A stretch of 64,000 bases of DNA. It comes from Christensenellales bacterium (GTDB lineage: Bacteria; Bacillota; Clostridia; Christensenellales; DTU072). Shown piece after piece: positions 18,215 to 51,868 of this stretch. Every line of letters begins with the position of its first letter. Position 1 is the stretch's first letter. The translations under genes and the position numbers were made by a program. Location: positions 326 through 64,325 of the forward strand of contig JBMNTS010000005.1 in NCBI GenBank assembly GCA_050945855.1, given 5' to 3'. The notes under the pieces were generated by a model. That model ran no database searches, was not told the origin of the DNA, and saw nothing but the letters and a program-made list of their open reading frames with translations.

Positions 18215-18381
18215 CAATTAATAAGAAAAAAGCCTTGAGAACACTATAAATCTACCTTAACACGCCGCAGGCGTATTGCATTTCGGCATAAGCCGAAATT
18301 GCATATTGCCGGTATAGGCAATATTTCATATTGGCGCAAGCCAATATTTAATTGCGCCGCAAGGCGCCTTGCGGACGCGCA
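18215..18381 (+). repeat. dispersed intergenic element: about 45-nt head plus array of 6 short hairpins with conserved ATTGCAT-type spacers
   Basis: Hairpins are ACGCC-gca-GGCGT, TTCGGC-ataa-GCCGAA, ATTGCC-ggtata-GGCAAT, ATTGGC-gcaa-GCCAAT, GCGCC-gcaa-GGCGC and TGCG-gacg-CGCA. Spacers are ATTGCAT, ATTGCAT, ATTTCAT and ATTTAAT. 18257-18304 matches the reverse complement of 51777-51824 at 46 of 48 positions (manual alignment). Confidence 0.75.
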
Positions 18382-44563: not shown

Positions 44564-45994
44564 ATGCAAGATTATAATAAAAAGTATCTGACGCGTACCA
44601 ACGTGTTTTCCTTTGCCGCAGGCGGCTTCGGACAAAATATGATAATAGGAATAGTCAATTCCTTTATCCTGTTTTTTTATACGGACATTCTTCTTATACC
44701 CACCGCCGCGGTAACCGTGCTGATGGCTTCCGCCAGGATTTTTGACGCGCTTAACGACCCGATTATGGGCATAATCGTAGACAAGACGCGCTCACGCTGG
44801 GGCAAACTCAGGCCGTATATTTTCGCAACGGTACTGCCTTTGGCGATAATCACCACCTTGCTGTTTTACGCCCCCGATTTGTCCGAAAAAGGCAAAATCG
44901 TTTACGCTTACATAACTTACTTTAGTTTCGGCATTATTTATACTATTTGCGACGTGCCTTTCTGGGGGCTTGCCTCCGCGATGACGCCCAATCCGGAAGA
45001 GCGTATACGCTTTATTTCTTTTTCCAGACTCTTTCACTCGGTGGGCGGCGCGCTGCCTATTCTGCTGGTGCCGATGTTTGTAAGTCTTGCGGGCGGCAGC
45101 AACCGGAAGGGATATTTTTCCGCGGGCTTGTTTGTGGGTATAGTGGGAGCGGCGCTGTTCTCTCTTGCTTTTTTCGGCACCAATGAAAGATGTGTTCAAT
45201 CGGAAAAAGCGCCCACGCTTAAGGATAACATAAAATTCTTTTTAATCAACCGCCCCCTTCAGCTGGTTGTGGGAGCCAACATTCTGGGCGCGGGCAGGGC
45301 TATCGCAATGGTGGCGAGTATGTATATCGCCGTATACCTTTTAGGCAACCCCTCCCTTAATATCATTGTTTTGGGCTCCTTTGGCGTTACGGGCTATTTA
45401 GGCATGCTGATTACTCCTCTGCTTGCCAAAAAAATCAACTACCGTCAAATGTATATTATGTGTACCATAATCGGCGTAACGGCAAATGCGCTGATGTTTG
45501 TTTGGGGGCAAAGCATGGCGGCTATTCTGGTTTGTATGGTAATAGCGGGCTTCCCTTACGGCGTGGCATCCAATATCAATTACGCCATGATTGCGGACAG
45601 CGTGGATTACGTGGAATGGAAAACGGGCAAACGCACGGAGGGCGTGTCAGCATCCTTCCAGACGCTTATGAACAAGCTTATGTCCGCCCTGCAGGTGGCG
45701 GGCACCGCTTACGCGCTCAAAACAGTCGGTTTTAAGCAGCCGGTTATGATTGACGGCGAACCGGTGACGCAGGTGCAGACGCAAGGCACGCTTAACGGCA
45801 TTTTCTTTGTAATTTCCATTATCCCCATGGTCAGTTGGATAATCGGACTGGCGCCTATGCTCTTCTACACCTTTATAGGCGAAAAGCGGCAGATTGCCCA
45901 CAGGGCGATAATTGATATGCGCAACCAAATCGGCGCGAAAGCCGAAGGGCAAGGCGTAGGGTGTGAAGATATAGAGTTTTTTGAGGAATACTAA
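44564..45994 (+). CDS. GPH:cation symporter family MFS transporter (second copy)
   Basis: Same motif set as 26011..27402 (FSFAAGGFGQNM...FYTD; RIFDALNDPIMGIIVDKTRSRWGKLRPY). Confidence 0.85.
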   Translation: MQDYNKKYLTRTNVFSFAAGGFGQNMIIGIVNSFILFFYTDILLIPTAAVTVLMASARIFDALNDPIMGIIVDKTRSRWGKLRPYIFATVLPLAIITTLLFYAPDLSEKGKIVYAYITYFSFGIIYTICDVPFWGLASAMTPNPEERIRFISFSRLFHSVGGALPILLVPMFVSLAGGSNRKGYFSAGLFVGIVGAALFSLAFFGTNERCVQSEKAPTLKDNIKFFLINRPLQLVVGANILGAGRAIAMVASMYIAVYLLGNPSLNIIVLGSFGVTGYLGMLITPLLAKKINYRQMYIMCTIIGVTANALMFVWGQSMAAILVCMVIAGFPYGVASNINYAMIADSVDYVEWKTGKRTEGVSASFQTLMNKLMSALQVAGTAYALKTVGFKQPVMIDGEPVTQVQTQGTLNGIFFVISIIPMVSWIIGLAPMLFYTFIGEKRQIAHRAIIDMRNQIGAKAEGQGVGCEDIEFFEEY

Positions 45995-46078
45995 TTGCGT
46001 CCGCAAGGCGCGCCCTGCGAACGCAAATGATACGTTCCCTTCGGGAACATGATACACGCCCTTACGGGCGCATGATAC
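45995..46078 (+). repeat. hairpin array with conserved ATGATAC spacers
   Basis: A long hairpin TTGCGT...ACGCAA encloses GGCGCGCC. Then ATGATAC / GTTCCC-ttc-GGGAAC / ATGATAC / CGCCC-ttac-GGGCG / cATGATAC. Period 22-23 bp. It begins 1 nt after the stop of the 44564 gene. Confidence 0.7.
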
Positions 46079-46132
46079 AAGCTACCCTCTTATTTGTGCT
46101 TGCTTTCCGGACGGCTTTTTGCAGAGAATGGG

Positions 46133-47446
46133 TTAAAACGCGTTGTGACACGCCTCGACAAAGCCTTCGGACACGCTTGGGTGAGGCCAGCAAAAAGAGA
46201 TTAAGTCGGCATGCTTTACTCCCATAGCGATAAGCGACCCTATCCCCCCTATTATCTCACCCGCGTTGTGCGCCACGATTTCCGCGCCCAACAGCTTTTT
46301 GGAGTCTTTGTCGAAAATTGCGGAATAATACCCCGTGCTTTTTGCTTCAATCAGCGATTTGCCGTTGGCGGCGGCGCTTGCCCTGCCTATAACGGTCTGA
46401 TACCCTTGCGCTTCCGCTTCCCTCTCATTTAAGCCCACAGAGGCTATTTCCGTATCGAGGTATACTACCTGCGGAACGGGCGGGGCAATAAACATATCCC
46501 TTTTCCCGCATATCATATCCACTGCCGCGGCCGCCTGATAAGAGGCGTAATGGGCAAGCTGTATATTTCCGTATACCGCGTCTCCCGCGGCGTAAATTCC
46601 CTGCGCTGTGGTTTTTAAGTTTTCCGCGATTATGCCGCCCCTCTCCGTGCGCACTCCCGCTTTCTCCTGCCCTTTCGGGATAACGGGCACTCTTCCGCAA
46701 GCCGCGATAACCGCATCGAATTCCGCAAAAGTTTCGCCCAGATAACAGCGGATTTTGTTATCCGCCCTTTCAATTCTGTCAATTTTGGCGTTTGTGAATA
46801 TTTTTATATTTTCTCTGCGCATAAGCAAGCCGGCGTATTTTGCCACTTCCTCGCTGAAAGTAGTCAAAAGCCGTGGCAGCGCCTCGTAAAGGGTGACCTT
46901 CGCGCCTAAATTCGCGAACAAGCCCGCAAACTCCGTCCCGATTACCCCGCCGCCTACTATCGCCACGCTTTGGGGCAGGGCGAACCCTCCCGCCAGCACC
47001 TCTCTTGAGGTGAGCGCCAGTTCTATCCCGGGTATGGGAGGCAGGGCCGCTTTTGCGCCCGTGGCTATAAGAAAGTTTCTGGCCTCGTAAATTCCCTCTC
47101 CTACTTGTACGCAGGTAGGGGATAAAAACTCCGCCTCTCCCTTAACGCACTCTATGCCGCTGTTTTTAATAAGCGCTTCCAGACCGCCTTTGAGCCTTGC
47201 TACCACCGCGCTTTTGCTTTTGAAAATATCCTCCGGCGCAAGAGTATAGCCGGGCGCACTCCTCAGCCGCTTGACCTTTTTGGCTTCCGCAAGCAACGCT
47301 TTTGTGGGTATGCACCCTTCGTTAAGGCAGGCTCCGCCCATCTCCCCCTTTTCTGTTAAGGCAACGGAAAGCCCAAGCTTCCTTGCCTTCAGGGCGGCGG
47401 TATAGCCCGCCGGTCCTCCGCCTATCACAATCAAATCATATATCAT
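46133..47446 (-). CDS. lpdA: dihydrolipoyl dehydrogenase family flavoprotein
   Basis: GGGPAGY FAD motif, redox-active GGACLNEGCIPTK, second Rossmann GGGVIGTEFA and C-terminal HPSVSE. Confidence 0.8.
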   Translation of the reverse strand: MIYDLIVIGGGPAGYTAALKARKLGLSVALTEKGEMGGACLNEGCIPTKALLAEAKKVKRLRSAPGYTLAPEDIFKSKSAVVARLKGGLEALIKNSGIECVKGEAEFLSPTCVQVGEGIYEARNFLIATGAKAALPPIPGIELALTSREVLAGGFALPQSVAIVGGGVIGTEFAGLFANLGAKVTLYEALPRLLTTFSEEVAKYAGLLMRRENIKIFTNAKIDRIERADNKIRCYLGETFAEFDAVIAACGRVPVIPKGQEKAGVRTERGGIIAENLKTTAQGIYAAGDAVYGNIQLAHYASYQAAAAVDMICGKRDMFIAPPVPQVVYLDTEIASVGLNEREAEAQGYQTVIGRASAAANGKSLIEAKSTGYYSAIFDKDSKKLLGAEIVAHNAGEIIGGIGSLIAMGVKHADLISFCWPHPSVSEGFVEACHNAF

Positions 47447-51761: not shown

Positions 51762-51868
51762 GCGCCTTACGGCGCAATGCAATATCGGCTTATGCCCAAA
51801 TGCAATACGCCTGCGGCGTGTTAAGGCGGATTGATAGTAAGTTTCTTGAGTTTTTTCTTTATTAATTG
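51762..51868 (-). repeat. inverted copy of the 18215-18381 element (shorter hairpin tail)
   Basis: + strand reads GCGCC-ttac-GGCGC / AATGCAAT / degenerate tCGGC-ttat-GCCca / AATGCAAT / ACGCC-tgc-GGCGT, then GTTAAGG...TTTTTTCTTTATTAATTG. This is the reverse complement of the head of the 18.2-kb copy. Confidence 0.75.

Follow-up and report, generated by a model that had tools for sequence, protein, structure and literature searches.

A probable, diverged Gut-1-type hairpin array inserted between the stop codons of two converging genes in a Christensenellales genome

Between a transporter gene and an oxidoreductase gene that converge upon it, the DNA of a Christensenellales bacterium carries one large and two small hairpins in alternation with three copies of the word ATGATAC, and the locus raises the question of what kind of element such a row is, how it came to lie exactly there and what, if anything, it does at present. 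The locus lies in a stretch of 64,000 nucleotides that was analyzed as a whole (hereafter the window), and the host genome comprises 1.47 Mb in 75 contigs and is 93% complete. The original prediction had described a 32-nt compound hairpin after the transporter stop, followed by ATGATAC words and hairpins alternating at 22-23 bp; the hairpin does begin directly after the TAA, and all three words and both further hairpins are present as described (Table 1), with start-to-start distances between the words of 22 and 23 nt.

Table 1. Features of the array and of the spacer between the two converging genes (window positions).
Feature	Position	Strand	Remarks
Transporter stop TAA	45992-45994	+	Ends a 476-aa MFS_2/GPH-type transporter (ORF 44564-45994)
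Head hairpin TTGCGTCCGCAAGGCGCGCCCTGCGAACGCAA, 32 nt	45995-46026		14 pairs, CGCG loop; begins at the first base after TAA
Linker 1, ATGATAC	46027-46033	+	
Hairpin GTTCCC-ttc-GGGAAC	46034-46048		C-G closes the TTC loop; - strand reads C-GAA-G
Linker 2, ATGATAC	46049-46055	+	
Hairpin A-CGCCC-ttac-GGGCG-C	46056-46071 (core 46057-46070)		C-G closes the TTAC loop; - strand reads C-GTAA-G
Linker 3, ATGATAC	46072-46078	+	
Remainder of the 138-nt spacer (45995-46132)	46079-46132		Directly after the array
Stop, TAA on the - strand	46133-46135	-	Ends the converging 437-aa pyridine-nucleotide-disulphide oxidoreductase (ORF 46133-47446)

Two pairs of the head hairpin are A.C/C.A mismatches on the + strand and G.U pairs on the - strand, and the A.C that flanks the TTAC hairpin is likewise G.U on the - strand. 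Read on that strand, the head hairpin is followed by TTAGTATT, which gives it a terminator-like look. The remainder of the spacer holds no recognisable motif, GTTAAGG end, promoter-like site or second copy in the genome. The genes around the array encode the transporter, the oxidoreductase, a diacylglycerol-kinase-family protein and a lipoate ligase. The list of open reading frames also includes a 66-aa ORF on the + strand (46027-46227), whose start is the ATG of linker 1, and a 136-aa ORF on the - strand (45647-46057) that runs antisense through the array; both look spurious, and both overlap with real genes or with the hairpins.

Several observations bear on whether the pattern is real. Tandem Repeats Finder reports a period of 23 nt at the array, and a search for any 7-mer present three times at a spacing of 18-28 nt, both gaps being occupied by a hairpin of 5 bp or longer, retrieved a single locus from the 1.47-Mb genome, the ATGATAC array itself, and none from 20 Markov shuffles of the genome. 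By itself the word ATGATAC shows no enrichment in the window (5 observed against 4.3 expected); what stands out is how the words and hairpins are arranged. Folded as DNA, both strands of the array are more stable than their shuffles (z -3.5 and -4.0). An independent assembly (Logan SRR31066337, L150) contains the identical array sequence, and the array is therefore not an assembly artefact.

An Rfam search of the locus returned Gut-1 (RF01706) as the only structured-RNA family covering the array, on the + strand at 46015-46083, with a score of 19 bits (E 0.1-0.3) that does not reach the gathering threshold of 50 bits. Gut-1 was reported from human-gut metagenomes only, as a probable non-coding RNA to which no function was given (Weinberg et al., 2010, Genome Biol 11:R31, PMC2864571). 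Elsewhere in the host genome the Gut-1 model gives matches of 53.5, 53.5, 39 and 38.7 bits, the last of these being the array at 18.3 kb of the window, and six further arrays match weakly, among them the window's 51.7-kb array. The locus is like Gut-1 in being a row of small hairpins with free stems and a constant linker (Gut-1 consensus GUGAAAU, often GUGAUAU in the family), in having a longer hairpin ahead of the row and in its association with gut bacteria. The loops agree as well, since both small hairpins (C-TTC-G and C-TTAC-G) follow the Gut-1 rule of U..C loops closed by C-G in the polarity of the linker. Gut-1 calls for three or more short hairpins set apart by a constant linker of the type (G/A)UGA(A/U)AU; the head hairpin of the locus leads only two short ones, and its three linkers all read exactly AUGAUAC, which agrees with GUGAUAU at 5 of 7 positions and with the AUGAUAU of a sister species at 6 of 7. 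Unlike Gut-1, the locus does not have the GUUAAGG end: AAGCTACCC stands after the last linker, where canonical copies have GTTAAGG.

The original prediction had pointed to the likeness of CGCCC-TTAC-GGGCG to a hairpin at 51762, which turns out to reflect no more than the loop rule common to the whole family. In sequence the locus is linked instead to the 18.3-kb array, through a 15-mer of the head hairpin, GCGTCCGCAAGGCGC, which occurs twice in the genome, both times in array heads and in the same orientation; the second copy lies in the head of the 38.7-bit array (window 18270-18354, - strand). A genome-wide blastn-short search assigns this match an E value of only 0.14, and it is convincing only because both copies sit in array heads. 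Judged from this shared stretch, the head of the ATGATAC array is homologous to that of the 18.3-kb array. Covariance modelling, proposed earlier as a check, did not significantly tie the locus to the family: beside the 19 bits of the Rfam model, a model of the single unit (R1), made from 24 units from relatives (alignment A4) and run against the window with filters off, found no match at the ATGATAC array and recovered one unit of the 18.3-kb array (E 0.042). The 100% pairing in A4 is circular for R1 because the units were chosen as perfect hairpins. A two-hairpin MAFFT alignment was structurally unusable as the basis of a model, and the single-unit R1 was used in its place.

No copy of the ATGATAC array was found elsewhere in the genome or in 60 relatives. 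When the genome collection was scanned for ATGATAC-N12-18-ATGATAC-N12-18-ATGATAC, the matches listed (at least 120) were all plain tandem or coding repeats with identical units, and none of them was a free-hairpin array. The family link is best read as resting on the architecture, the loop rule, the orientation, the head 15-mer and the linker of the sister species; the model scores do not back it. Taken together, these features suggest, with a probability of roughly 0.6, that the ATGATAC stretch is a solitary, diverged copy of the Gut-1 type, an orphan of a system of arrays and Avd-like proteins described below, whose present effect, if it has one, is passive. Within a motif class that is known but still unexplained, its linker marks the locus as a new variant.

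The host genome contains 13 arrays, found by a k-mer scan together with a hairpin-chain scan, and these fall into three linker classes: ATGCAATA, which is canonical; ATGATGTA, used by the 36.5-kb array, C16:2502 and C39; and ATGATA(C/T), used by the ATGATAC array and C19. It had been claimed that the arrays near 18.3, 36.5, 46.0 and 51.7 kb form one family with locus-specific spacers. Their shared architecture is borne out, within the genome-wide family of 13 loci; that family was already known as the Rfam Gut-1 motif class, however, and the covariance models yield no significant tie for the present locus. The linkers, in turn, are specific to subfamilies instead of loci, and the claimed likeness to the linker of the 36.5-kb array is real, ATGATAC being ATGATGTAC minus GT. 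Above-threshold Gut-1 copies with the linker (A/G)TGATAT occur in the same-genus sister species (G001), and the linker in other genera is mostly GTGATAT or GTGAAAT. Across 61 related genomes the Gut-1 model matches 17, patchily even within genera, and copy numbers reach 53, in a genome of 1.3 Mb, with many matches lying at the ends of contigs or overlapping in tandem. Scans for generic hairpin chains and 6-mer pairs were set aside for their noise, with 250 clusters found where shuffles gave about 140.

A canonical element has a compound hairpin at its head, then about four hairpins, and GTTAAGG as its end, and is often followed by a second, inverted array. Its tail was considered as a promoter on the complementary strand; no consistent -35/-10 was present, and the tail usually proved to be the second, inverted array. 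In the orientation of the linker the loops are T..C and C-G closed, which amounts to a sharper structural rule for Gut-1 and is equivalent to G..A loops on the other strand. T..C loops outnumber G..A loops by 19 to 3 among 34 unique hairpins of the host-genome arrays (C-G closure in 31 of the 34) and by 63 to 9 among 156 unique hairpins from relatives, compared with 3 T..C, 9 G..A and 40 other in ordinary terminator-like hairpins of the host genome as a control; these tallies, like those of mismatches given below, are small and their copies are not independent. On the complementary strand, where the loops read C-GNA-G or C-GNNA-G, purines were not preferred at the third position of the tetraloops (15 of 36). 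Outside the window, the array at C19:2766-2900 carries the linker GATGATATA in both orientations, with two hairpins having TATATCATC-type linkers and GCA/CTTG loops, then three with TGC/TAAA loops, and its forward part is enclosed by a perfect 16-bp outer stem (CATTGCGAAAGCGATG ... CATCGCTTTCGCAATG). Two further sites outside the window, C16:285-357 and C26:1281-1353, are identical above-threshold Gut-1 copies, each of them immediately preceded by a tRNA gene with a symmetric terminator that looks bidirectional.

How such arrays are placed was surveyed in 37 cases, 13 from the host genome and 24 from relatives. A bias of position and orientation, which the original prediction had put up for checking, is present: 20 of the 37 have the stop of a same-strand ORF at most 100 nt upstream of the array head, as against 6 in the mirror-image arrangement, and about 7 more have a same-strand tRNA and terminator upstream. 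Within the host genome the linker has the orientation of the upstream gene in 12 of 13 arrays, and the heads of C10, C36, C16:2502 and the 51.7-kb array lie 0-3 nt after a stop codon or contain one.

The history of the site itself can be read from two relatives in which it is empty. In the sister species (L029:583-586) the TAA of the transporter and the TAG of the oxidoreductase overlap as CTAA, and in a metagenome contig (L151, near 1969), whose transporter is 79% identical, the two stops are 5 nt apart. The ends of both proteins are conserved at both sites, and neither site has a terminator between the converging genes. Given abutting stops and conserved protein ends in relatives, the 138-nt spacer is therefore a lineage insertion and not an old control element of the transporter; by this comparison of genomes, the copy sits in an insertion placed exactly between the abutting stops of two converging genes. 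The idea of a conserved transporter-gene feature was dropped, the array being missing at the same site in the two closest relatives. Such clean empty sites indicate that a Gut-1-type array arrives as a discrete insertion, in this case between overlapping stops, and the locus illustrates how far linker and hairpins may drift while the loop rule and the orientation persist.

A candidate partner for the arrays is the PF05635 family of small, Avd-like four-helix-bundle proteins. Among the 61 genomes, 11 have both Gut-1 and PF05635, 6 have Gut-1 only, 4 have PF05635 only and 40 have neither (Fisher p = 2.5e-5 with kinship ignored). The two also vary together inside genera: genus g4 divides into three genomes that have both and two that have neither, and g7 has one of each kind. 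Two genomes (G029 and G017) carry many arrays and zero PF05635 matches. Same-strand arrays precede PF05635 genes by 150-480 nt in G001 (twice), G013, G021, G027 and G054; at one locus (L279) the gene is bracketed by near-identical inverted arrays, and at another (L281) the arrays reach its ribosome-binding site and must therefore be transcribed there. Frequent neighbors of these array/PF05635 loci are tRNA genes. The window contains no PF05635 gene and the host genome no intact copy; its only homolog is a truncated remnant (C66:3902-4120, - strand, residues ~36-115) without the ~35 N-terminal residues, directly after a tRNA gene and terminator, and the array that usually stands between terminator and PF05635 gene is missing. 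A DUF6054 gene (113 aa) that follows the C16 Gut-1 copy was considered and does not represent the partner family. A more regular flavor of the gene-plus-array layout is seen at L280 (G019:C8), where the PF05635 gene at 135522-135827 is preceded by a tandem array of near-identical units with the linker GTGATGT and followed by a repeated block with the reverse linker.

PF05635 proteins resemble Avd, the nucleic-acid-binding helper of the reverse transcriptase in diversity-generating retroelements (DGRs; PMC10053308). The genes beside complete arrays belong to this family, which is annotated as '23S rRNA intervening sequence protein' and resembles the Avd of phage BPP-1; in contrast to the DGR setting, the surroundings of the arrays showed neither a reverse transcriptase nor a template/variable repeat pair. 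Gut-1 as seen here behaves like a multi-copy dispersed repeat tied to PF05635 genes, as opposed to the small-RNA view of 2010, and a motif that has been a function-less orphan since that year now has the Avd-like proteins as a supported, concrete partner candidate. In complete elements the hairpins may keep the linker words single-stranded and regularly spaced, and so offer a multivalent platform to an Avd-like oligomer; the ATGATAC copy would then be an orphan left behind by this system. A fuller version, which we put forward tentatively and consider doubtful as a whole, makes Gut-1 one half, the nucleic acid, of a system of two parts that has not been described: inverted arrays of mini-hairpins with free sequence would present a clade-specific linker of 7-9 nt to the PF05635 oligomer, both would spread to sites just after stops and terminators with no classical transposase involved, the selected strand may be the complement of the Rfam one (C-GNA-G, C-GNNA-G) with hairpins acting as single-stranded DNA, and the ATGATAC array would be an insertion fossil whose empty site is kept in relatives. 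Should the partner model be true, it would give a function to an RNA motif and to a large protein family of gut Clostridia that has no assigned role. Taken alone, the ATGATAC locus is a minor and probably decaying repeat copy, and its value lies in the insertion with preserved empty sites and in the data point that it adds for Gut-1 and PF05635.

Which strand matters at the locus is ambiguous: gene context favors the + strand, which is the Rfam orientation, whereas wobble polarity and folding energy favor the - strand. The array folds at -45.7 kcal/mol on the - strand against -33.1 kcal/mol on the + strand, the whole spacer (148 nt folded) gives z -3.3 on the - strand and -1.05 on the + strand, and all four of the four non-Watson-Crick positions at the locus are G.U on the - strand. 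Family-wide, the transition-type stem mismatches in Rfam orientation are A.C in 14 cases and G.T in 2 (7 and 2 with terminal positions excluded), small, non-independent counts that are suggestive only as a pointer to the strand. A strict assignment by G.U versus A.C inside stems was abandoned, with only 3 cases available. A consensus terminator scan accepts 46026-45995 on the - strand, with the tail TTAGTATTCC and a poor U-tract; the same scan of the + strand at the locus found no U-tract and nothing terminator-like. The - strand is like an intrinsic (Rho-independent) terminator in that its 14-pair, GC-rich head hairpin is followed by the downstream tract given above and passes a simple scan, and unlike one in its poor U-tract, its two extra hairpins and its repeated linker. 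We infer that the likeliest present effect of the copy is that of passive 3' structures for both transcripts, with a weak terminator on the - strand. Lying in the 3' trailers of both converging transcripts, the hairpins could passively block 3' exonucleases, and on the - strand the head hairpin with UUAGUAUU might help to stop the oxidoreductase transcript short of the transporter gene, which it would otherwise enter antisense.

Three other explanations of the locus have to be set against the reading as a diverged Gut-1-type copy. The array could be a functional 3'-UTR element of the transporter mRNA on the + strand, in which a hairpin just after the stop hinders the terminating ribosome or protects the 3' end and so sets expression; Liang, Rudd and Deutscher reportedly found in 2015 such an effect for some E. 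coli REP elements near stop codons. The start of the hairpin right after the TAA fits this idea, as do the four other heads at or within 3 nt of a stop (C10, C36, C16:2502 and 51.7 kb) and the orientation shared with the upstream gene in 12 of the 13 host arrays. Yet the element is missing at the same site in the two closest relatives despite the conserved C-terminus and stop of the transporter, and is therefore not an old part of its control; moreover, the + strand has a head hairpin with two A.C mismatches, a spacer fold no better than shuffles and no U-tract after the hairpin. We consider this explanation rather unlikely. We regard as distinctly improbable a local invention, namely that a hairpin-plus-word unit was tandemly duplicated beside a terminator-like hairpin and resembles Gut-1 by convergence. 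Non-significant Rfam and unit-model scores, a second copy nowhere found and three identical linkers, as a recent duplication would give, are what this account would lead one to expect; a fresh duplication would have copied the hairpins too, however, and the two hairpins are unrelated in sequence. The head 15-mer, the loop rule and the family-typical position are also jointly hard to obtain by chance, and bona fide copies in the sister species use almost the same linker.

An element acting at the level of DNA, either through 7-mers two helical turns apart that serve as docking sites on the duplex or through mini-hairpins of the single-stranded - strand, appears highly improbable for this locus, even though several features fit it. 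The spacing is 22-23 bp; the loops C-GNA-G and C-GNNA-G correspond to the 'mini-hairpin DNA' motif of single-strand replication origins (PMC13037366, PMC3201870). Without third-position purine preference, the complementary GNA/GNNA loops fit DNA mini-hairpins better than RNA GNRA loops, the family-wide excess of A.C over G.T mismatches in Rfam orientation points the same way, and inverted array pairs around PF05635 genes resemble terminal inverted repeats. Against these stand the lack of any Y1/HUH (PF01797) or rve (PF00665) transposase that goes with the arrays, array-rich genomes such as G001, G013, G019 and G027 having neither, the extent of the L281 array up to the PF05635 ribosome-binding site, so that it must be transcribed there, and the finding that half of the Rfam-orientation tetraloops are UNAC, a recognised RNA tetraloop class. 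In addition, stems of 5-6 bp are too short to be extruded from duplex DNA on their own.

The diverged Gut-1-type copy can also be compared with other classes of repeats. REP/BIME elements of enterobacteria are likewise short intergenic palindromes clustered after genes, multi-copy and patchy between relatives, and they can stabilise upstream mRNA or act near stop codons; in REP, however, the palindrome is conserved and the spacers vary, whereas the present arrays have free stems and a conserved linker. A search for RAYT/IS200-type Y1 proteins (PF01797) gave no match in the host genome or in most of the array-rich relatives, and REP/BIME with RAYT was rejected on stems that differ from one another and on the absence of PF01797 from the genome. 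A DDE/rve transposase (PF00665) as the driver was likewise discarded, as it shows no association with array-rich genomes. The pneumococcal BOX elements (boxA-boxB(n)-boxC) are modular, vary in the number of their internal units, are predicted to form stable hairpins and are not known to have a transposase. The arrays are like BOX in being modular intergenic repeats with a variable number of units, and unlike it in that BOX modules are conserved in sequence, measure 45-60 nt and have neither the logic of constant linker and free hairpin nor an Avd-like partner. A CRISPR array, whose repeats measure 23-47 nt and which comes with unique spacers and with cas genes, does not fit, as the constant word here has 7 nt, the variable parts are self-complementary and the neighbors are not cas genes.

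Short words of the mini-hairpins are themselves overrepresented in the host genome. The 9-mer TCCGCAAGG occurs in 69 copies genome-wide against about 11 expected, and CCGCAAGG in 196 copies where about 45 would be expected, no more than 35 of these having a T-run within 25 nt; the C-GCAA-G mini-hairpin word is enriched well outside the arrays too.
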